Assembly: GCA_017302015.1 (NCBI GenBank)
Contig: JAFLEE010000006.1
Coordinates: forward strand, 1-64,000
Length of the DNA: 64,000 nt
Source: Spirochaetota bacterium
GTDB lineage: Bacteria; Spirochaetota; UBA12135; COTS27; JAFLEE01
Direction: 5' to 3'
Both the position numbers and the translations under genes were made by a program. This document shows, piece after piece, positions 4,358 through 38,961 of the stretch. Each line of letters opens with the position of its first letter. Within the stretch, counting starts at the first letter, position 1. The notes beneath the pieces were generated by a model, which did not search any database, was not told where the DNA came from, and saw only the letters and a list, made by a program, of their open reading frames with translations.

Positions 4358-5911
4358 TCAGCCGACGGGCTTCCCGAAGAGGAGTTCGATGACCCGTTCG
4401 AGGGAAGGCTCCGTGCTCCGATAGGTATTGATCACCGTATCCATCGCGGCCTCGTATTCGGCGTGGACGTAGGGGTGGAAATGGCTGATGAAGACCACCG
4501 GCGTGCCGAGGCGCATCCAGCCCTGCATCATATTGCGCGCCACCGCCCCGTGGAGGCGGATGACGTTGACGCCGTAGGAGGCCCCGTTGCCGATGGAGCA
4601 GATGATGGCGTCCCAGCGGCCCTCCCCGACCTCCGCGAAGAGCCGGTCGGGGCCGGGATCGATGAGTTCCTCCACGCCCCCATGGCGCGCCCGCAGGAGT
4701 TCGGTGAAGCGGGAGAGGATCTTCTGGTTGGCCGCGAGGTCGTTGGTGAGGACGAGGTGGAGGATCTTCGAACCGGGGGGGATCCCGAGGGGGAGGGTGG
4801 CGGGGCGGTCGCGCACCACCTCGACGGCCCGCACGGCCATCTCCTTGGCCCAGGCGGCGTGGGCCCCGCGGTCGGCCGCATCGGGGGGCGCCCCGGTCCC
4901 GCCGCCCAAGCCCATCTGGGATTTCAGGGCGAGGATGCGCGCGGCCCGATGGCGCAGGGTGGGGAGTGTGAGGAGGCCGCTCTCCAGGCGCCGCTCCATC
5001 TCGTCGTAGAAGCGCCCGTCCATCTTGGGGAAGAGGAGGCAATCGCCCCCGCGCTCGAAGAAGGCGGCGCAGGCGTCCCAATAATTGAGGTAATTCACCA
5101 CGCCGCCCATATTGATGGCGTCGGAGACGACGAGGCCCCCGAAGCCCAATTCCCCGCGCAGGAGGTCGATCATGAGTTTGCGGGAGAGGGTCGCCGGCGG
5201 GAAGAGGCCGCGGGCGTCGGCGTCGTCGAAGGCGGGCAGCGCGATGTGCCCCGGCATGATCGCCATCACCCCCGCCTCGATGAGGCGCCGGAAGACCCGG
5301 CCCGATCCCAGCCGCCACGCCTCGCGGCCCAAGGGGTTGATGGAGGTGGTGAGGTGCTGGTCGAAGAGGCTGAAGCCGTCCCCCGGAAAATGCTTGGCGG
5401 TGGCCGCCATGCCGTGCTCCTGCATGCCGCGCACATAGGCGGAGGTGATGGCGATGACCTTCTCCGGGTCGCTCCCGGCGGAGCGGTAACTGACGATGGG
5501 ATCCTCGATCTCGCCGAGGAGGTCGGCGCAGGGGGCCAGGGACCAATTGAAGCCGACCTCCCGGCCTTCGAGGGCGGCGGCCTTCCCCATCTTCCACGCC
5601 AAATCCTCGTCGCCCACGCGCCCGCAGGCGAGCATGGAGGGGAAGCGGGTGCCGTCGGTGATCATGTTCCCCGGGCCGGCTTCCATGTCGGTCGTGACGA
5701 GGGGGGGGATCCGGCAGGCTTTCCGGAACGCCTCGATGCGGCGGCGGAGGTTCTCTCCGGGAGCGGGGTGGAAGAAGGCCGCCCCGTATTCCCGCTCCGG
5801 CACCGCGTCCCCGGCGAAATTGGGGCAGCAGACCTGATCGAGGAGCGCGTGGACCCCCATGGCCTCGGCCTGCGCGCGGTGGGTTTCATTCGGGGTGATC
5901 TGGAATTTCAT
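4358..5911 (-). CDS. Glycoside hydrolase family 3 protein (NagZ/beta-glucosidase-like), cytoplasmic
   Basis: 517 aa with the KHFPGDG motif of the GH3 N-terminal domain and a GLVVSDA block. No signal peptide. Confidence 0.7.
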   Translation of the reverse strand: MKFQITPNETHRAQAEAMGVHALLDQVCCPNFAGDAVPEREYGAAFFHPAPGENLRRRIEAFRKACRIPPLVTTDMEAGPGNMITDGTRFPSMLACGRVGDEDLAWKMGKAAALEGREVGFNWSLAPCADLLGEIEDPIVSYRSAGSDPEKVIAITSAYVRGMQEHGMAATAKHFPGDGFSLFDQHLTTSINPLGREAWRLGSGRVFRRLIEAGVMAIMPGHIALPAFDDADARGLFPPATLSRKLMIDLLRGELGFGGLVVSDAINMGGVVNYLNYWDACAAFFERGGDCLLFPKMDGRFYDEMERRLESGLLTLPTLRHRAARILALKSQMGLGGGTGAPPDAADRGAHAAWAKEMAVRAVEVVRDRPATLPLGIPPGSKILHLVLTNDLAANQKILSRFTELLRARHGGVEELIDPGPDRLFAEVGEGRWDAIICSIGNGASYGVNVIRLHGAVARNMMQGWMRLGTPVVFISHFHPYVHAEYEAAMDTVINTYRSTEPSLERVIELLFGKPVG

Positions 5912-5944: not shown

Positions 5945-7234
5945 TCAAAGCGGGGACGTTCGGGCCGGATCCGCGGCGGGGGCGCCCGCGCGCTCGCGGG
6001 AGGTTCGCGCGATCGACGCGTTGAAGCGGCGGACGAAGAGTTTCAATTTGTAGAGGTCGAGGGTGTTCTGGGTATCCGTGCGGATGACCTGGCTACTGGC
6101 CTTGGGATCCATGCGCACGGGGTCGCCGACGTCGAGGGCCGTGCGGTTGAGGACCATGGCGTGGTGCGCGACGATCGCCTTCTGCTTGCGCGCATGGGTG
6201 AGGACGAAGGAGGCCGAGTTGAGGAACTTGAAAAAAGTGTCGCCCGGGAGCCCGACCATGAGGTCGATCTTGTAGCGGATCGACGACCCGTCGAGTAGGC
6301 GCAGCCCCTCCTTGGTCTTTTCCGCGTCCCAGGGCCGGCCGCAGCGGCGCAGGACCTCCCCATCGGTGGATTGGAGCCCCAATTCGGCCCACACGGTGAA
6401 AGAGAAGGATTCCAGGATGGCGACGGTTTCCCGATCGATAAACTCGGGCTTGAGTTCCATGGACACGCGAAGCGGGCCCCGACGGTGGCGCTCGATCATG
6501 CCCAAGATCGCGCGCATGCGCCCCTTGTCGAGGTTGAAATTGGCGTCGAGGAGGGTCAGGTTCGGGAAGGTGAAATGCTCGAACAGGTAGGCGATCTGAT
6601 CCTCCAAAACGGGCAGGGAGACGCATCGGGTGGGGACTTGCGCATAGTAGCAATACGCGCAAGGAAAGGGGCAGCCCCGGGCCGTCTCCAATTTGACGAC
6701 GGCATAGCGCTTCTTCCCCCCCTGGCGGTAGGGGACGGGCAGGGCGTCGAGATCTTCGATGGGGCGCTCGGGGTTACGGCGCACGGCCCCGTTCTCCAGC
6801 CAAATCAGGTTTCGCACCTCGGAGGAGGCGCGTCGTCCCAGGAGATGCTCGAGGAGTTCGGCGAACGCGGCCTCGCCTTCCCCCTGGATGACGAAATCGA
6901 AGGCCGAGATGGCCCGCTCGTCCGCTTCGGGGCCGCCGAGCACCAGGCGGATCCCCGGTCTCAGGGCCCGGATCGCGCGGGCCACGTTGCGGATGATCTG
7001 GATGCTCCAGATATAGCCGGCGAACCCGACGAGATCCGGTTCCTTGAGGAGGATCCAGGAGATGGCCTTCTGTTCGACGCTCAGGTTGGTGTTATGGCTG
7101 AAGCGGCTCCCGTACGGGAATTCCTTGCACTCGATCTGGACGTCGAGCCGGCTTTGGGCGTATCCCTTGAGGGAGGCGAGGCCGAGCGGGAAGGAGTCTT
7201 CCTGGACGCTAAAGCTGAGCAATGCGATTTTCAT
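5945..7234 (-). CDS. B12-binding domain radical SAM protein
   Basis: 429 aa. The N-terminal Rossmann-like cobalamin-binding region is followed by ARGCPFPCAYCYY, which contains the CxxxCxxC radical SAM cluster motif. Confidence 0.75.
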   Translation of the reverse strand: MKIALLSFSVQEDSFPLGLASLKGYAQSRLDVQIECKEFPYGSRFSHNTNLSVEQKAISWILLKEPDLVGFAGYIWSIQIIRNVARAIRALRPGIRLVLGGPEADERAISAFDFVIQGEGEAAFAELLEHLLGRRASSEVRNLIWLENGAVRRNPERPIEDLDALPVPYRQGGKKRYAVVKLETARGCPFPCAYCYYAQVPTRCVSLPVLEDQIAYLFEHFTFPNLTLLDANFNLDKGRMRAILGMIERHRRGPLRVSMELKPEFIDRETVAILESFSFTVWAELGLQSTDGEVLRRCGRPWDAEKTKEGLRLLDGSSIRYKIDLMVGLPGDTFFKFLNSASFVLTHARKQKAIVAHHAMVLNRTALDVGDPVRMDPKASSQVIRTDTQNTLDLYKLKLFVRRFNASIARTSRERAGAPAADPARTSPL

Positions 7235-7640
7235 CGTCCAACCATGCTTGCAGTTCGGGTTCCACGCGCTCGATCGGCCGGGGCGTGAACCCCTCGCCCC
7301 GGTAGGCGCACCAGGGCGCGAGCCGGCACGCCCCGCATTCGGCGAAGGCGCGCGTTCCCCGCTCCTTCCTGAAAATCTCGACCATGTGCTGGATCTCGCC
7401 TTGGCAGAAGGGGATGCCCTGGGTGAGGGGATAGATCTCGTTGACGAGGAGTTCGGCGAAGAGATCGGGGAGGGTGTGGAGGAGACGATCGTCGCGGAAG
7501 CCGAGGATAAAGGATTCCTTCGGGAGGCGGCCTAAGTCGAAGGACTCGATGGGGATGGGATCGGGGAGCAACGGCGGTTCCGCGGGTCGTCTACGCGTCG
7601 CCCAAGCATACCCCTCCGCCGCGTCTTTATCAATGCCCAT
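7209..7640 (-). CDS. Hypothetical Cys-motif protein with a partial SPASM/twitch-like motif, overlapping the rSAM start
   Basis: 144 aa from ATG 7640. The C-terminal region reads GIPFCQGEIQH...FAECGACRLAPWCAYRGEG, which gives CX2CX5C plus one upstream Cys. The 3' end overlaps the rSAM start by 26 nt in a different frame. The longer annotated ORF up to 7940 is an antisense artefact over the divergent gene. Confidence 0.45.
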   Translation of the reverse strand: MGIDKDAAEGYAWATRRRPAEPPLLPDPIPIESFDLGRLPKESFILGFRDDRLLHTLPDLFAELLVNEIYPLTQGIPFCQGEIQHMVEIFRKERGTRAFAECGACRLAPWCAYRGEGFTPRPIERVEPELQAWLDDENRIAQL

Positions 7641-7682
7641 CCGCCATGCGACACTCCACGGGCCGCCCGACGCGCCCCCGCC

Positions 7683-9308
7683 ATGACCCAAAAATTGCTC
7701 GCGCTGCTGGTGGTCAATCTGCTCTGGGGCCTCATCCCCTGGCCGGCGGCCGAACTCTTCGGCGCCTATTCCTCCTTCCTCATCGTCTATGCGCGCTTCG
7801 TCTACTCCGCCCTCGCGCTCTTGGCCGCCACGGCCTTCCTCATCGTCTGGGTCAACCGCTGCGCCAAGGCGCCCATCACCGGGGGGACCCTCGCGCGGTA
7901 TCTGGCGGCGAGAAACGACGATTTCTTCGGCCTGCCCCAATGGGTCTACCTCCTCCTCGTCGCCGTCGTCGGGTTCAACGCCCAGATCGTGCTGTTCTTC
8001 TGGTGCCTCAAGACCCTCGGGGCCATCGCCACCTCGATCGGCTTCGTGCTGGCCCTCCTCATCGCGGCGGTGGTCAATTGGGGCGCGGGGAAGGAGGACA
8101 TGTCGCGGTTCAAAGTCCTCTACCTGGGGACCCTCTTCCTCGCCACGATCATCCTCGGGGCGATGAGTCCGACCACCGCGCCGGGGGGCTCCTTCGGGCC
8201 CGGGAACCTCCTGGTGCTCCTCGTCTTCGGCGCGGTCTACGGTTTCTTCTTCGTCACCAGCGCCGCCGATCGGATGGCCCCGGAGGAATACCGGTTCCTG
8301 CGCGACGCGCCGCGCTGGGTGCTCGTGCGCACCGTCTTCAAGATCGCCGTCATTTTCCTCGTGGCCGCGCTCACGCTGCCGCCGATCGTCTGGGCCCTGA
8401 AGGCGGCGGGGCTGCGGCCCGACCTCACCGCCGAGGCGGCCCGCTTCTTGCGGGAGTGGCCCCAGTGGTGGCGCCTGGGGGTGTCGGGCAGCGGCGTGGT
8501 GCTGATCGTGCTCTGCACCATCCTCCCGACCCTCTGGTTCTACGCGTTGGCCACCTCATGGCCCAAGCAATCCTCCTTCGACCTGTGGGCGGGGGTGCTG
8601 GCGACCACCGAACCGATGCTCAACATGGTCCTCGGGCTCCTCGTCCTCCACGAGGCGTTCCCCCTGCCCTGGCTTCTCGTCGCCATGGCCCTCATGGCCA
8701 TCTCGATCCTCACCCGCTACCTCAGCGAAACCGAATCGCAGGTTTCGGGCGTGGCCCTCATCGACGCCCGCTACGATCGCGGGCGGGCGCTGATGGAGCA
8801 CCTCTACGCCCTCGGGCCGGTTCGCCGGGTGGCGAGCCTCTTGGGCGAGCACGACCTCATGGTCGAGACGCTGTGCGCCTCCTCCCGCGAGTGGGGCGGG
8901 GCGATCCAGGAGATCGCGCGGTCCCCCGGCCTCGCGGCCCAGCGGACGCTCCTGTTGACCCGAATCGAATTCGACCGAGTCGTGCCCGACGCGCAGAAAG
9001 GCGTTTCGCCGCGGACTCGGAGCGCCCGGCGCGGGGCGAACCCGGCCACTGAGGAGGATGGCATGCCCGTTCGCATCGCGAGTTTCTTGAAGGTCGAAAG
9101 CGGGGCGACCGCGGGCGCCGTCGCCGCGCTCCGGGCCCTGCCCGAGGCCGTGCGCGTGCTCTCGATCACGGGGGAATACGACATCATCGTCGAGTTCGAG
9201 GCGCCCACGCCCGAGGATCTCAACGAGGTGCTCGTGAAGCGGGTCGAGGCCATCCCCGGCATCCTCGAACTCCGCTCCCATTTCGTGACGGCCGAGTGGG
9301 AGAAATGA
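7683..9308 (+). CDS. EamA/DMT-type membrane transporter fused to two C-terminal Lrp/AsnC ligand-binding (RAM) domains
   Basis: 541 aa. Residues ~1-340 are multi-pass hydrophobic with an EamA-like duplicated 5-TM pattern. The C-terminus carries two regions (VALIDARYDRG...LLTRIEF and VRIASFLKVESG...LRSHFVTAEWEK) with the AsnC-type RAM fold signature. Confidence 0.55.
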   Translation: MTQKLLALLVVNLLWGLIPWPAAELFGAYSSFLIVYARFVYSALALLAATAFLIVWVNRCAKAPITGGTLARYLAARNDDFFGLPQWVYLLLVAVVGFNAQIVLFFWCLKTLGAIATSIGFVLALLIAAVVNWGAGKEDMSRFKVLYLGTLFLATIILGAMSPTTAPGGSFGPGNLLVLLVFGAVYGFFFVTSAADRMAPEEYRFLRDAPRWVLVRTVFKIAVIFLVAALTLPPIVWALKAAGLRPDLTAEAARFLREWPQWWRLGVSGSGVVLIVLCTILPTLWFYALATSWPKQSSFDLWAGVLATTEPMLNMVLGLLVLHEAFPLPWLLVAMALMAISILTRYLSETESQVSGVALIDARYDRGRALMEHLYALGPVRRVASLLGEHDLMVETLCASSREWGGAIQEIARSPGLAAQRTLLLTRIEFDRVVPDAQKGVSPRTRSARRGANPATEEDGMPVRIASFLKVESGATAGAVAALRALPEAVRVLSITGEYDIIVEFEAPTPEDLNEVLVKRVEAIPGILELRSHFVTAEWEK

Positions 9309-9318
9309 GGAGCCCGCC

Positions 9319-9579
9319 ATGGTGAGCATCCTGAGTTTTATGGTCGTGCGCGTGGGCGCCACGGAATCGGTGACCGAGGCGCTGCGGGCGATCCCCCAGG
9401 TCTCCGACGTCTACTCCATCACCGGCAAGTACGACCTCGCGGTGCGCCTCGAGGGGCGCACCAGCGAGGAGATCTTCGGGATCTTCACGGATTCCATCGA
9501 GAAGATCGAGGGGATCGTCGTGTTCGAATCGCACCTCATCATGCAGCATTGGGCGCGGGGGAGCGCTCCGGTCCGCTGA
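9319..9579 (+). CDS. Stand-alone Lrp/AsnC ligand-binding (RAM) domain protein
   Basis: 86 aa: MVSILSFMVVRVGATESVTEALRAIPQVSDVYSITGKYDLAVRLEGRTSEEIFGIFTDSIEKIEGIVVFESHLIM. This is a typical AsnC C-terminal domain with no HTH. It lies 10 nt after the previous gene. Confidence 0.65.
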   Translation: MVSILSFMVVRVGATESVTEALRAIPQVSDVYSITGKYDLAVRLEGRTSEEIFGIFTDSIEKIEGIVVFESHLIMQHWARGSAPVR

Positions 9580-9627
9580 GCCCCGCCCGCGCCGCGACCG
9601 CTCCCACGCGCGGCCATCGGCGCCGCG

Positions 9628-10404
9628 TCAGAAGGCCTGGTCCTGCGGCGATTGCCAAACGCGCACCCAATCGATGAGGAAGGAGTCGGGCAGGGCGGCG
9701 GTCGCGATGTCTCCGCCCCATTTGCCGACCTCCAACGAAAAGATGAGGTGGGAGCGGACTTCGGAGACGGGACCTTCCAGCCGCCCGGTCTCCTGCTCGT
9801 CCACGAAGAAGCGGTACCCCTCCCGGGTCCAGAGCATCGCGAAGGTATGCCAGCCCGAGTCGATACCGGCGACGACGGTATGGACGTTAGTGGATTGGTG
9901 CCCGCTCCCGTAGCCGCCCCAGTGGAGCGTGTGGTTGGCGACTCGGTCCAATTTGCCGTTGCGCAGGTACTCGAAAATATCCAACTCGACCCCGCCCGTT
10001 TGCGGCGGGAGGGCCTTGTCCATGCGATGCGGCATCATCCAGAAGGCGGACCAATGGCCGGGCTGGGTTTGGGGGCGCGCGCGGCACTCGAAGTACCCGC
10101 GGATGAAACCTTTCCTCCCGGCGGAGCTCACCCCGCCCGTGACATAGCAGTCCCCCTCCCGCCGCGTCGTGATGGCGAGGTTCCCGTTCCCGTCGAGGGC
10201 CGCGGCGTCCGCTTGATTCACGGCGTCTCGGCGCGGCCCCGGCGCCCAAGAGGACCACGCATTGGTATCAAACGAGCCGCCTGCGGGGCCCTCGAACTCA
10301 TCGGCGAAGACGAGGCGGTAATCGAGGCCTCGGATCGCCGGGGGCGGGAGGGATACGGCGGGCGCGCTGCATAACAGGACGAGGAGCGGTAGGGTGCGTG
10401 CCAT
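9628..10404 (-). CDS. Glycoside hydrolase family 16 (secreted beta-glycanase)
   Basis: Signal peptide MARTLPLLVLLCSAPAVS. GH16 catalytic motif ELDIFE (ExDxxE) plus a WSAFWMM block. An alternative start at 10434 is possible. Confidence 0.8.
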   Translation of the reverse strand: MARTLPLLVLLCSAPAVSLPPPAIRGLDYRLVFADEFEGPAGGSFDTNAWSSWAPGPRRDAVNQADAAALDGNGNLAITTRREGDCYVTGGVSSAGRKGFIRGYFECRARPQTQPGHWSAFWMMPHRMDKALPPQTGGVELDIFEYLRNGKLDRVANHTLHWGGYGSGHQSTNVHTVVAGIDSGWHTFAMLWTREGYRFFVDEQETGRLEGPVSEVRSHLIFSLEVGKWGGDIATAALPDSFLIDWVRVWQSPQDQAF

Positions 10405-10458
10405 CGGAGATCCTTTCGGTTGTCGCGGTCTCATCGGCTGGTTTTTTTAAGCGCGAGC

Positions 10459-32390: not shown

Positions 32391-34190
32391 ATGCTGCAGC
32401 GCCTCTACCAGATCCTGGGCTCGCCCATCGCGCCGATCATCGCCGCCCTGGCATGGACCCTGCTGCTGGGGGCCTCGTATTCCTGGAATGCGGGCCGGGA
32501 GCGGGGCGCCGCGGTGGCGCTGGCCCGGCAAGAAGCACTGGGGAGTTTCCAGAAGGATCTCGTCTACCGCCGCTGGGCTTCTATGCACGGGGGCCTGTAC
32601 GTGCCCGCGACCTCGAACACCCCTCCCAACCCGTACCTGGCCAGGGTGGAATCCCGCGAGATCGTGGGGCCCCAGGGGCGGGTCTACACGCTGCTGAACC
32701 CGGCCTACATGACGCGGCAGGTGCACGAATTGGCCCGGGAACAATATGACAACCGCGGGCACATCACGAGCCTGCATCCGATCCGTCCCGAGAACCGCCC
32801 CGATCCGTGGGAAAGCAACGCCCTCCTGTGTTTCGAAACGGGCGCGGCGGAACGGAGCGAGGTGGCCCTCTTGGGCGGGGCGCGCTGGCTGCGCTTCATG
32901 CGGCCCCTCGTCACGGAGGCCTCCTGCCTCCGCTGCCATGCGGACCAGGGCTACCGCGCCGGCCAGATCCGGGGCGGCATCAGCGTTTCGGTCCCCATGC
33001 GCCCCTACGAGTCGATCGCCGAGGAGAATATCCGCGCGTCCCGGGTCATCCATCTCGGGGCTTGGGCGCCGGTGCTGGCCCTGTTCTTCGCGAGTTGGTT
33101 CACCGGCACGCGGCGCCAGCGCGATCAAGAGGTCGCGGCGCGGATCTTGATGCAGAGCGAGGGGAAGTTCCGCTCGTGGATCGAGAAGGCCCCGGAGGGC
33201 ATCCTCGTCATCGGTCCGGACGGCCGCATCACCGACGGGAACCCCGCCGCGGAATCGCTCACCGGCCTGGCGGTCGACGGGCTCCGCCGCCTCTCGGGCG
33301 CCTCCCTGATCCAGGAGCCCATGGGGAAGGCCCCGCGGGAAGGGGAATCCATCCACCTCCCCGAACGGCATCTCTTGCGGAAAAACGGCGCCGCGATGCC
33401 CGTCATGGTCGACCGGGTGCGCCTGGGCGACGACCATGAACTCTGGTTCCTGCGCGACCTCACCGAGCACCGCCGCCTGGAGCAGGACCTCGTGCACCGG
33501 GAAAAACTGGCGGCGGTGGGTTCCCTGGCCGGCGGCGTCGCCCACGAGTTCAATAACCTTCTCTCCGTCATCCGCCTCCAGGCCCAGCAGCTCCTCTCGT
33601 CGGCGCCCCTCCCCGTGGAACGCCAGCAGGCGCTCCTCGCGGAAGTGATCCAGCAGACGCGCCGCGGCGCCTCGATCACCTCCGGCATGCTCGCCATCTC
33701 GCGCCCCCCCAAGGGCAAGGTCGAGCCGTGCCGCCTGGAGTCGCTCCTCGACGAGGTCCTCGATTTCCAGGCCCCGGCCTTCGCCCAGGAGCGCATCGCG
33801 GTGGAGCGCGATTACCGTTCGACGCGGCCCATCATGGCCGACCGGGACCAGCTCGTCCAGGTCTTCCTCAATCTCACCATCAACGCGCGCCACGCCATGC
33901 GGGCGCGCGGCGAGGGAACCTTGCGCGTCTCCACCCGGGATTTCCCGGGCGAGGCGGGGGCCCTCATCGCCGATACGGGCATCGGCATGACGACCGCGAC
34001 CCAGGAAAAACTCTTCACGCCCTTCTTCACCACCAAGGGGGCCTACGCCCAGGACGGCCTGGGCATCCAGGGCACCGGGCTCGGGTTGGCCGTGAGCGCG
34101 CGGGTCGTGGCCCAGTTCGGGGGCCGCATCTCCGTGGAGAGCCGGGAAGGCGTCGGCACGACGTTCACCGTGACCTTCCCCATTGCCTAG
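32391..34190 (+). CDS. Sensor histidine kinase with periplasmic CxxCH (heme c-type, DUF3365-like) sensor domain, PAS, HisKA and HATPase
   Basis: 599 aa. The periplasmic region carries TEASCLRCHADQGYR (CXXCH), followed by a TM segment and a PAS region. The H-box reads AAVGSLAGGVAHEFNNLL. HATPase G-boxes are DTGIGM and GTGLGLAV. Confidence 0.8.
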   Translation: MLQRLYQILGSPIAPIIAALAWTLLLGASYSWNAGRERGAAVALARQEALGSFQKDLVYRRWASMHGGLYVPATSNTPPNPYLARVESREIVGPQGRVYTLLNPAYMTRQVHELAREQYDNRGHITSLHPIRPENRPDPWESNALLCFETGAAERSEVALLGGARWLRFMRPLVTEASCLRCHADQGYRAGQIRGGISVSVPMRPYESIAEENIRASRVIHLGAWAPVLALFFASWFTGTRRQRDQEVAARILMQSEGKFRSWIEKAPEGILVIGPDGRITDGNPAAESLTGLAVDGLRRLSGASLIQEPMGKAPREGESIHLPERHLLRKNGAAMPVMVDRVRLGDDHELWFLRDLTEHRRLEQDLVHREKLAAVGSLAGGVAHEFNNLLSVIRLQAQQLLSSAPLPVERQQALLAEVIQQTRRGASITSGMLAISRPPKGKVEPCRLESLLDEVLDFQAPAFAQERIAVERDYRSTRPIMADRDQLVQVFLNLTINARHAMRARGEGTLRVSTRDFPGEAGALIADTGIGMTTATQEKLFTPFFTTKGAYAQDGLGIQGTGLGLAVSARVVAQFGGRISVESREGVGTTFTVTFPIA

Positions 34191-37248: not shown

Positions 37249-38961
37249 TCATTTTTGGTTTCCGATCCTCCGGATCTCCGTCGCAACGCGGGAGGGGCCG
37301 GATTCCTCCGGCGCGGCGATGGCCCGGTCCATGCGGATTTTGAATTGCGCCACCAGGGCATTGAGTTCCTCGGCCTGGGAGGAGAGTTCTTCCGTCGCCG
37401 CGGCGGCCTCCTCGACGAGGCTCGAGTTCATCTGGGTATTCTGGTCGAGGGAGAGGATCGTCTTGTTGATCTGCTCCACCCCGTCCCATTGCTCGCGGCT
37501 GGCGGAGGCGATCTCGGCGATGAGATCCTTTACCTTGGTGACGGCGGCGTTGATCTCGCCGAGGCTGCCCCCCGCGCGCTTGGCCAGATCGGATCCGGCC
37601 TCGACCCTGCGGATGCTGTCGCCGATGAGGGCGGCGATCTCGCGGCTGGCCTCGTCGCTCCGTTGGGCGAGCTTGCGCACCTCGACGGCCACCACGGCGA
37701 ATCCGCGGCCCTGCTCGCCGGCCCGGGCGGCCTCGATGCTCGCGTTGAGCGCCAGGAGGTTGGTCTGGAAGGCGATCTGGTTCATCACTTCGATGATCTG
37801 GCGCATCTTCTGGCTGGACTGGGTGATGCCTTCCATGGCTTCGACGACTTCGCCGACGATGCCGACGCCTTCGCCGGCCTTCCCCGCGGCCTCGAGGCTC
37901 AGCGCATTGGCCTCCTGGGCGCCCTGGGTATTGCCCTTGATGCTCGACGACATCTCCTCCATGCTGGCGGCGGTTTCCTCCACCGAGGCGGCCTGGGCTT
38001 CGGTGCGGCGGGAAAGGTCTTGGTTGCCCTGGGCGAGTTGGGAGGAGGCCGCCCCCACCTGGCCCGAGGCGTCGCGGATCATGGCGAAGGTGTTCCCGAG
38101 TTTTTCCGCGCCCTCAACCAGGGCGCGGGCCATGACGCCGAACTCATCGCGGGAGCGGGAGCGCACGGCGGCGGTGAGGTCGCCCCGGGCCAGGGCGCCG
38201 GCGAAATGCACCGCGTCGTTGACCGTGGCCTGGATGGGGCGGAAGATCCAGGCGACCGCGGCGAAGATGAGGGCGATGATGGCCAGGGTCGCCAGGATGA
38301 CGAGCACGGTGCTACGCCGCATTTGCCGATCGACGTCGTGCATGGGCGCGAGGATCTCGAAGGCGCCGTGGCGTTCCCCCACCTTCCAATTCTCCATGGG
38401 GCCGCCGGTGATGTCGCGGCCGTCGTCCCGTCCCCAGAGCGCGCGGCTGGTGGCGGGGTCCCCGTGGCAGGCCATGCATTCGGCGGTGAGCTTGATGGAC
38501 CGGAAAATGCGGATGGCGTTGCGCTCCCGGTCCATCCCCCAGACCTGGTCGAGGTTCTCCCGTTCCATGCGGTTGAGCATGGCGAGTTCGAACGCGTCGG
38601 GTTCGTTCTCCGGGTTGCGGGGGCTGGTCTTGGGAACGCGGAAAATGTAGTTGCCCTCGTTGGTCCGCGCGCGCAACGTGTTCATGGCGGTGAGCACGGG
38701 CACGGCCTGGAGGATGCGGTATTTACGCCGTTCGGGGTCGGGATCCTGGATGGTGCGGAGGTCGGTGAGGATGCCCAGTTTGTATTTTTCTCCCATCTGG
38801 ATGCGGCTCTCCTCCGCGAGCGCGAGCAGGGCTTGGCCCTTCTCGAGTTTTTGCCGTTCGGCCTCTTTCCGCAAGTTCGTAAGGAAGACCGCCGCGAGGG
38901 TCGCCGAAAGCGAGATGAGGGCCAACCCGAGGATGAGGAAGATCTTCGAACGGAATTTCAT
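37249..38961 (-). CDS. Methyl-accepting chemotaxis protein with periplasmic CxxCH (DUF3365-like) sensor domain, HAMP and MCP signalling domain
   Basis: 570 aa. The periplasmic domain carries TAECMACHGDP (CXXCH). A TM segment and HAMP follow, then a conserved MCP hairpin region (…QTNLLALNASIEAARAGEQGRGFAVVAVEVRKLAQRS…). Confidence 0.85.
   Translation of the reverse strand: MKFRSKIFLILGLALISLSATLAAVFLTNLRKEAERQKLEKGQALLALAEESRIQMGEKYKLGILTDLRTIQDPDPERRKYRILQAVPVLTAMNTLRARTNEGNYIFRVPKTSPRNPENEPDAFELAMLNRMERENLDQVWGMDRERNAIRIFRSIKLTAECMACHGDPATSRALWGRDDGRDITGGPMENWKVGERHGAFEILAPMHDVDRQMRRSTVLVILATLAIIALIFAAVAWIFRPIQATVNDAVHFAGALARGDLTAAVRSRSRDEFGVMARALVEGAEKLGNTFAMIRDASGQVGAASSQLAQGNQDLSRRTEAQAASVEETAASMEEMSSSIKGNTQGAQEANALSLEAAGKAGEGVGIVGEVVEAMEGITQSSQKMRQIIEVMNQIAFQTNLLALNASIEAARAGEQGRGFAVVAVEVRKLAQRSDEASREIAALIGDSIRRVEAGSDLAKRAGGSLGEINAAVTKVKDLIAEIASASREQWDGVEQINKTILSLDQNTQMNSSLVEEAAAATEELSSQAEELNALVAQFKIRMDRAIAAPEESGPSRVATEIRRIGNQK

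Follow-up and report, generated by a model that had tools for sequence, protein, structure and literature searches.

What does a membrane transporter do with RAM domains, the ligand-binding part of Lrp/AsnC regulators? The question is raised by a stretch of 64,000 nucleotides from a Spirochaetota bacterium (GenBank assembly GCA_017302015.1, contig JAFLEE010000006.1, positions 1 to 64,000 of the forward strand), which we call the window. In it, a gene for a 541-aa protein that combines a membrane part with two RAM domains is followed by a gene for an 86-aa RAM protein. An earlier interpretation of the bare DNA (the sequence-only reading) had proposed an exporter of the EamA type gated directly by an amino-acid-like ligand, and had linked it to a neighbouring radical S-adenosylmethionine (radical SAM) gene pair. 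Our analysis places both genes in a family of drug/metabolite transporter (DMT)-RAM proteins with stand-alone RAM partners that is otherwise found in Asgard archaea. We consider it somewhat better than an even bet that the activity of the transporter is set by a cytoplasmic assembly of RAM1:RAM2 (type A) and RAM3 (type B) that senses an amino-acid-like metabolite.

The two genes and their parts are the following.

7683 to 9308, + strand: DMT-RAM1-RAM2 fusion gene, 541 aa, NCBI MBN8215563.1 ('Lrp/AsnC ligand binding domain-containing protein')
7683 to 8738, + strand: transporter domain, aa 1-352, ten transmembrane (TM) helices, predicted DMT fold
8739 to 8966, + strand: RAM1 (tethered), aa 353-428
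8967 to 9062, + strand: linker, aa 429-460, low model confidence (predicted local distance difference test, pLDDT, 46-53)
9051 to 9065, + strand: fossil translation start, with GAGGAGG at 9051-9057, 5 nt, and ATG at 9063-9065 (Met461)
9063 to 9305, + strand: RAM2, aa 461-541, orthologous to SARM-A, which comes first among the stand-alone RAM genes in Asgard operons
9307 to 9318, + strand: spacer of 10 nt (9309-9318) and Shine-Dalgarno-like GAGGAG (9307-9312)
9319 to 9579, + strand: stand-alone RAM3 gene, 86 aa, NCBI MBN8215564.1, orthologous to SARM-B, the second such gene

The open reading frame (ORF) list and the sequence agree with the earlier description of two ORFs of 541 and 86 aa that lie 10 nt apart. 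The fusion gene stops with TGA at 9306-9308 and the RAM3 gene starts with ATG at 9319, a gap of exactly 10 nt. The GAGGAG motif overlaps the stop codon of the fusion gene, and this together with the short spacer indicates an operon with translational coupling. The GC content at third codon positions (GC3) is 0.92 for both ORFs, the same as in neighbouring genes. A longer N-terminus has been called for the family member P0002 (MRHS..., 21 additional residues). We rejected it for the window, where the corresponding ATG at 7646 is out of frame; the conserved start of the transporter is MTQKLL/VTRKLL.

All three RAM domains can be recognised from sequence and predicted fold. Pfam AsnC_trans_reg (PF01037) matches two stretches of the 541-aa protein (E 1.1e-15) and one in the 86-aa protein (E 5.7e-11). 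Scanned individually against this model, which has a gathering score of 25 bits, RAM2 (aa 447-541) scores 47.3 bits and RAM3 42.6 bits, the RAM of the latter spanning aa 1-79 of 86. RAM1 (aa 353-446) scores 18.4 bits (E 0.002) and falls under the gathering score. A family profile over RAM1 nevertheless matches DM1, STS042 and FL11 at 9e-11 to 3e-10, and the RAM domains are predicted to adopt a beta-alpha-beta-beta-alpha-beta fold. We count RAM1 as a RAM domain because the profile matches and the predicted fold make up for the low Pfam score.

RAM2 superposes on the DM1 structure 2e1a with a TMt of 0.93 (Foldseek, Protein Data Bank (PDB)). The closest solved relatives of RAM3 are the stand-alone RAM modules TTHA0845 and DM1/PHS023, and the 86-aa protein is itself built like such a module, which is a single domain of ~75-95 aa and nothing else. 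No helix-turn-helix (HTH) family was matched in either protein in the Pfam scan. The winged HTH that characterizes Lrp/AsnC (FFRP) factors is absent, the N-terminus of the 541-aa protein being membrane-embedded and the 86-aa protein consisting of RAM only. Pfam scan, family profile and fold thus bear out the earlier claim of two fused RAM domains and a third stand-alone one, all HTH-less.

The membrane part was identified through its predicted structure and its relatives. Hydropathy shows ~10 hydrophobic segments. An AlphaFold (AF2) model built from a 35-member alignment (mean pLDDT 88.8, predicted TM-score (pTM) 0.76) contains ten long helices (pLDDT mostly >90) and three short extra-membrane helices, followed by RAM1 elements at aa 354-425, a low-confidence linker at ~aa 428-461 and RAM2 at aa 463-534. 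A Foldseek search of the PDB returned YddG (5i20) first, then SLC35B1, the CMP-sialic acid transporter and the triose-phosphate translocator. Among the 35 full-length family members, 19 match EamA at E<=0.01 (best 3e-11), and these EamA-matching relatives are tied to the TM domain of the window at E values down to 1.9e-83. The two-times-5-TM arrangement of DMT/EamA proteins is found in the hydropathy, in the model and in a sub-threshold EamA alignment that spans aa 5-158, approximately the whole model and one full repeat. The TM part is, as judged by predicted fold and relatives and without a direct Pfam match, a divergent DMT-fold transporter. The N-terminal 10-TM EamA-type fold of the sequence-only reading therefore stands by way of the model and the relatives, though its own Pfam scan gave an E value of only 1.2.

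Several features of this domain are distinctive. Compared with the solved 10-TM DMT structures, it is very divergent and has conserved extra helices at aa 67-75 (loop 2-3), aa 200-208 (loop 6-7) and aa 246-267 (loop TM7-TM8). The TM10 helix occupies aa 328-352 and the first strand of RAM1 begins at aa 354, two residues past TM10; family members share the junction motif R345-Y346-x-x-E349. The even-numbered loops contain nine Lys and Arg residues versus four in the odd-numbered loops. DMT proteins have an N-in/C-in topology. With this charge bias, both ends of the transporter and the RAM domains are probably cytoplasmic, and loops 2-3 and 6-7 with their extra helices, which would face the same side, could serve as a docking surface.

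We next asked how widespread this architecture is. An exhaustive HMMER search with aa 1-356 as the query against 1.84 billion representative proteins (E<=1e-3) yielded a TM-part family of 55 representatives; a word-indexed protein search returned 2 relatives only, with a single sequence or the family profile alike. The full-length family members are 417-478 aa long and consist of ten TM helices and one RAM (~80-100 extra residues), and 26 of the 35 aligned ones match the Pfam RAM model. Outside the lineage of the window, every member that carries an organism label belongs to Promethearchaeota or Lokiarchaeota, and the contexts of the unlabelled members hold archaeal or Asgard markers (SepCysE, NAC, Arf/Roc/RagA GTPases, eIF2-gamma, SepSecS). 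A species-level locus scan (one genome per prokaryotic species, with 7 closer family members as the query) identified nine related loci. All nine are from Asgard archaea and include Promethearchaeum syntrophicum MK-D1, Lokiarchaeum ossiferum, Harpocratesius repetitus, an Atabeyarchaeia genome and several metagenome-assembled genomes (MAGs). Seven more archaeal-type loci, and no further bacterial ones, were found in a scan of JGI metagenomes.

Stand-alone RAM genes were located with a RAM hidden Markov model built from the family in 24 fetched loci with a complete DMT-RAM gene (locus numbers beginning with L). Such a gene is present in 24/24 loci and directly adjacent to the DMT-RAM gene in 23/24, the exception being L018, where the distance is 3.5 kb. 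Two stand-alone RAM genes lie directly downstream in 11 Loki-type loci (L004-L012, L022, L024). A single one is found in L013-L017 and L019, and L023 shows one before the contig ends. In L020 and L021, the single stand-alone RAM gene is directly upstream, not downstream, of the transporter gene. The pairing of DMT-RAM with a free RAM thus survives changes in gene order and is the sole constant of the neighbourhood. As a rule in the family, a single RAM is tethered and the others are free proteins; the double-RAM fusion is a local peculiarity of the lineage of the window.

The remaining neighbours vary and include an FGGY kinase, MazG, an amidohydrolase, aspartate kinase and a ClC channel. In the Lokiarchaeia loci L004, L005, L009 and L010, the module lies between an FGGY-family sugar kinase, upstream and divergent, and a MazG-like gene, downstream and convergent. 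The MK-D1 locus (L006) has an amidohydrolase upstream, the Atabeyarchaeia locus a ClC channel nearby, and L015 and L016 an aspartate kinase ~3 kb upstream and an AMP-binding enzyme downstream. P0024 and P0040 (L020), which belong to a distant subfamily, come from the same Promethearchaeota MAG according to their locus tags (Kow0069_23030 and Kow0069_14460), so some Asgard genomes hold paralogous DMT-RAM systems.

How does the window version relate to this norm? A neighbour-joining (NJ) tree of RAM domains resolves three clades: the tethered RAM1, the product of the first free gene (A) and that of the second (B). Clade A includes RAM2 of the window, and clade B its 86-aa RAM3. One and the same archaeal contig, L004, is the sister of the window and its 77%-identity relative in each of the three clades, and reciprocal phmmer scores agree with the assignment of RAM2 to A and RAM3 to B. 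These sequence comparisons identify RAM2 as the ortholog of a once separate, stand-alone gene (A) that joined the transporter gene on loss of the upstream stop codon, and RAM3 as the ortholog of the second stand-alone RAM gene. The linker keeps the tail motif of archaeal DMT-RAM proteins, D-R-x-x-P-x-x-x-K-G-x-S, in common with L004, L005 and L008. It is made of the former C-terminal tail of DMT-RAM and the former intergenic spacer, now coding.

The junction also retains traces of the old gene start. Met461 aligns with the start Met of free RAM-A proteins. In the window, GAGGAGG is placed 5 nt before its ATG (9051-9065); in the 77%-identity relative L001 (7986-8000), AAGGAGG is placed 5 nt before the equivalent ATG while the encoded linker residues are different. 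The free gene of the archaeal L004 has AAGGAGA at the equivalent place. Such a Shine-Dalgarno motif is carried by 8 of the 276 internal in-frame ATGs of window genes (2.9%), and given this low background an internal start at Met461 that still yields free RAM-A is possible. Four contigs from separate samples, namely the window, L003, L001 and L002, carry the fusion (541/562 aa) intact; they represent two lineages at 77% identity, and the fusion is therefore real.

The window belongs to a bacterium. Its proteins match NCBI MBN8215562-64 exactly; these records come from a MAG that bears the label Spirochaetes/Spirochaetota bacterium. The window also encodes a FabF equivalog, a chemotaxis receptor (methyl-accepting chemotaxis protein), histidine kinases, glycoside hydrolases, a sulfatase and IclR/GntR regulators; the label and the bacterial FabF, chemotaxis receptor and histidine kinase genes together identify the host. 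In a membrane-domain tree (NJ, Kimura-corrected p-distances, 200 bootstraps), the window protein lies within the Loki-type clade in 200/200 replicates and is sister to the L004 protein in 135/200 (68%). As the family is otherwise confined to Asgard archaea and the window falls inside the Loki-type clade, transfer from archaeon to bacterium is the parsimonious account, and the whole module was most likely acquired from a Loki-type archaeon. The host-like GC3 suggests that the transfer is not recent and that codon usage has adapted.

Structural work on RAM domains provides a frame for asking what the module may do. RAM domains dimerise via their beta-sheets and the dimers stack, often into octamers, with amino acids bound at dimer-dimer interfaces; ligand binding shifts their conformation or oligomeric state (PMC2995911, PMC2504300). 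In Grp, a G-x-x-D loop contacts the ligand amino group through its Asp (D102) and, through its Gly (G99), the carboxylate, which two Thr of a T-x-T motif (T132, T134) from the neighbouring dimer also bind (PMC2504300). The G-x-x-D loop is present in all three RAM domains of the window, as LGEHD in RAM1 (G388-x-x-D391), TGEYD in RAM2 and TGKYD in RAM3. Across the family, where mean identity is ~25%, almost all copies of RAM1, A and B have it. The T-x-T position reads Q-R-T in RAM1, L-R-S in RAM2 and F-E-S in RAM3. In the family, single partner RAMs have T-x-T in this strand and most B copies have S-x-S; A copies keep half of the motif, and RAM1 has lost it. Such asymmetric retention is the pattern that a fixed hetero-oligomer with defined ligand-forming interfaces would show.

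The most economical reading, which we favour, is that a RAM assembly binds a small molecule and thereby controls the transporter directly. The tethered RAM1 is expected to pair with RAM2, since RAM domains dimerise, stack into rings and bind metabolites between dimers, and the fusion of the two suggests the same. On its cytoplasmic side, the transporter would carry the RAM1-RAM2 pair stacked with RAM3 dimers, and binding of a ligand would alter this assembly. The change could then be transmitted through the rigid TM10-RAM1 junction to open or close the transport pathway, making the protein a metabolite-gated transporter. As a Rosetta-stone fusion, the joining of RAM-A to the transporter is an indirect pointer to a physical association of RAM and transporter, which remains a prediction. 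The DMT superfamily includes exporters, importers and exchangers. Our best guess, by analogy, is a 'safety-valve' role in export, with an amino-acid-like metabolite as the substrate. The RAM-gated transporter of the sequence-only reading is strengthened by the 23/24 adjacency and by the G-x-x-D loop kept in all three RAM types; the double-RAM fusion on which it was built is not the norm of the family.

Some observations weigh against this reading. The TM part of the window scores 9.9 bits against Pfam EamA (PF00892), below the gathering score of 28.2, and its family profile has no sequence match to solved DMT transporters; membership in the DMT superfamily thus rests on the predicted fold and the relatives. 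With F-E-S in RAM3 and the motif lost in RAM1, a canonical amino-acid site is not guaranteed, and some archaeal RAM proteins bind no amino acid (PMC2995911). For the evolutionary part, the trees are distance (NJ) trees only, in which the sisterhood to L004 reaches 68% and the deeper nesting is weakly supported.

Previous studies describe the parts of the module in other combinations. Transcription of neighbouring EamA or amino-acid-exporter genes is controlled by Lrp/AsnC regulators, such as PA2577 of P. aeruginosa, which represses the divergent EamA-like PA2576 (PMC8707732). This is the nearest described arrangement of both parts, a RAM sensor and an EamA/DMT transporter, and the presumed logic is common to the two systems: the level of a metabolite sets transporter activity. 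In the PA2577 type, however, the RAM is on a DNA-binding protein and control is transcriptional, whereas in the window the RAM is part of the transporter and there is no HTH, so that any control would be post-translational.

Nearest in logic are transporters under direct allosteric control by a small or fused sensor. In AmtB-GlnK, an ammonium channel and a small sensor with a ferredoxin-like fold are encoded in the same operon, and fused cytoplasmic sensors are found on other transporters as CBS (ClC/MgtE/OpuA), RCK (K+ systems) and STAS (SulP) domains. The conserved operon linkage of a transporter gene with small-sensor genes is likewise found in the DMT-RAM family. The window differs in that its sensor fold is RAM and not PII, CBS, RCK or STAS and its transporter is of another family.

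The solved DMT proteins YddG (5I20), LicB (7B0K), TPT (5Y78) and SLC35B1 are without a C-terminal RAM, unlike the DMT of the window. The stand-alone modules DM1/PHS023 of Pyrococcus horikoshii, STS042 of Sulfolobus tokodaii and TTHA0845 of Thermus thermophilus are closest in sequence and fold to RAM3 and RAM2, with which they have a G-x-Y-D loop in common. Known stand-alone RAMs bind amino acids at dimer-dimer interfaces and change their oligomeric state (PMC2995911). In contrast to these modules, the RAMs of the window are genetically locked to a RAM-bearing membrane transporter, and the T-x-T of the known modules is replaced by L-R-S in RAM2 and F-E-S in RAM3.

Our literature search found no description of a DMT/EamA-RAM fusion or of its operon with stand-alone RAM genes, in agreement with the sequence-only reading, which did not recognise the architecture as a described system. 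An Asgard transporter survey names only 'uncharacterized DMT families' (PMC7997004), and the physiological role of stand-alone RAM modules has been called 'unclear' (PMC2995911). The parts are known, as is the principle of a transporter with a cytoplasmic sensor; new are the combination, the Asgard distribution, the fixed partnership with stand-alone RAMs and the bacterial fusion. In public annotation, NCBI goes by the RAM domain alone ('Lrp/AsnC ligand binding domain-containing protein') or has 'hypothetical protein'; the names 'DMT-like permease' and 'DNA-binding Lrp family transcriptional regulator' are also in use. The last name, given by JGI to P0002, P0026 and P0071, is a misannotation, as these proteins have ten TM helices in a membrane-embedded N-terminus and no HTH.

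Could the module instead be a signalling device? The tethered RAM1 would then act as an anchor, as in a transceptor, that captures and releases free RAMs according to transport state or ligand, with gene regulation as the output: the freed RAM proteins would join full-length Lrp/AsnC regulators in mixed oligomers and thereby change transcription. In vitro, the stand-alone RAM DM1 does assemble with FL11, a full-length regulator, into hetero-octamers, and such mixing is the only role so far proposed for stand-alone RAMs (PMC2995911). The strict linkage of free RAM genes to the transporter gene would fit, and the possible internal start could supply free RAM-A in the fused version. Nevertheless, a RAM-A shuttle is hard to square with the covalent fusion of RAM-A to a membrane protein, a full-length Lrp/AsnC gene is absent from the window and from beside the module in the loci examined, and a junction as rigid as that between TM10 and RAM1 points to mechanical coupling with the transporter. 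We therefore regard a signalling device as unlikely.

We attach a similarly low probability to the idea that the RAM domains are structural only and hold or stabilise transporter subunits with no ligand sensing. RAM domains are obligate dimerisers, the T-x-T motif is lost from RAM1, and the archaeal RAM proteins that appear not to bind amino acids (PMC2995911) would be precedents. A purely structural role does not account for the conservation of G-x-x-D in nearly all copies despite the low mean identity, or for the T-x-T or S-x-S kept by the partner RAMs, and one or two extra soluble RAM genes would be superfluous for mere dimerisation.

A different proposal concerns the substrate and could coexist with gating: the module would sense and export the product of the radical SAM enzyme and a Cys-motif protein encoded divergently from the fusion gene. 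The features on this side of the module are the following.

7572 to 7682: divergent intergenic region, 111 bp
7209 to 7571, - strand: Cys-motif protein, 120 aa, C-x22-C-x2-C-x5-C, MBN8215562.1; overlaps the start of the radical SAM gene by 26 nt; neighbour, only a possible module member
5945 to 7234, - strand: B12-binding radical SAM enzyme, 429 aa; neighbour, only a possible module member
4358 to 5911: glycoside hydrolase family 3 (GH3) gene, after the radical SAM gene and followed by two solute-binding proteins

The divergent arrangement is as the sequence-only reading described it; the spacing is not 42 bp. That figure assumed an ATG at 7640 as the start of the Cys-motif protein. We rejected this start because amino-acid similarity to the 77%-identity relative does not set in until 'IPIE', a conserved sigma70-like promoter sits downstream of ATG 7640, and NCBI calls the protein at 120 aa (MBN8215562.1). 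These three lines of evidence make TTG 7571 the most likely start, and the intergenic region then measures 111 bp (7572-7682). The promoter lies on the - strand in the conserved block CAAGCATACCCC...TTATCAAT and has its -35 (TTGATA) at 7633-7628 and its -10 (TATGCT) at 7610-7605. A second block conserved with the 77%-identity relative, CATGCGACACTC, is found at 7645-7656. The radical SAM enzyme has no NCBIfam family above cutoff (best TIGR04013, 95 bits versus a cutoff of 251). The Cys motif is reminiscent, in our own reading, of an auxiliary Fe-S motif (SPASM/twitch-like).

The relatives at 99% and 77% identity have the same divergent gene order, and the Cys-motif protein, with only two homologs among 5.8 billion clusters, both from the same lineages, is as rare as the bacterial transporter. 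The earlier expectation that the radical SAM link would be conserved in related genomes is not upheld beyond this lineage. The pair is beside the module only in L001-L003 (99% and 77% identity), where synteny across two closely related lineages can be simple inheritance, and a homologous radical SAM or Cys-motif protein is absent from all 21 more distant loci (L004-L024). In these distant loci the module is self-contained and its other neighbours vary. Since the radical SAM gene runs into GH3 and two sugar-binding proteins and its operon has a conserved promoter of its own, the genes on this side suggest a separate, carbohydrate-related operon. We find export of the radical SAM product even less probable than the two readings above.

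In L018, a radical SAM gene (583 aa; 891-2642) and a GH3 gene (1-823) lie ~3.5-5 kb upstream of DMT-RAM and echo the window pair. We did not retain this locus as support for the link, as its radical SAM protein has no phmmer similarity to that of the window; the echo is probably a coincidence.

Finally, a frameshift or assembly error joining two genes, or a decaying pseudogene, would explain why every other family member has one RAM on the transporter, but such an artefact is practically ruled out by the intact fusion in four independent contigs and the host-like GC3 of 0.92.

On the other side of the module, a glycoside hydrolase family 16 (GH16) gene (9628-10434, - strand) sits inside an ~860-bp insertion (window ~9590-10455). 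The insertion is absent from the 99%-identical L003 (8540-8570), and L001 (77% identity) has two different small genes in its place; the site just 3' of the RAM3 gene thus varies between strains. Farther along the window, a histidine kinase (32391-34190, + strand) and a methyl-accepting chemotaxis protein (37249-38961, - strand) both carry a Tll0287-like sensor domain, so that one input domain serves two different signalling outputs within 5 kb. Rfam and tRNA scans of the window gave no matches.

Taken together, DMT-RAM proteins and their stand-alone RAMs may be a kind of metabolite-gated transporter, or transceptor, that has so far gone unrecognised and that would be both ancestral to Asgard archaea and widespread among them. 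Stand-alone RAMs would thereby have their first physiological role, as regulatory subunits, and the bacterial copy would be a Rosetta-stone fusion that shows which RAMs go together, possibly with a retained internal start. We put this wider proposal forward tentatively, at a little less than even confidence. Stand-alone RAMs have been crystallised repeatedly while their role remained unclear (PMC2995911), and the conserved transporter operon offers a concrete and testable function. If true, RAM would join the short list of sensor domains that directly control transporters (CBS, RCK, STAS, PII). The bacterial copy would record a transfer from archaeon to bacterium and then a gene fusion, in a transporter that present public annotation hides. 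Since nearly all its members come from Asgard archaea, the cultured Promethearchaeum syntrophicum and Lokiarchaeum ossiferum among them, the family bears on metabolite exchange in amino-acid-fermenting syntrophs.

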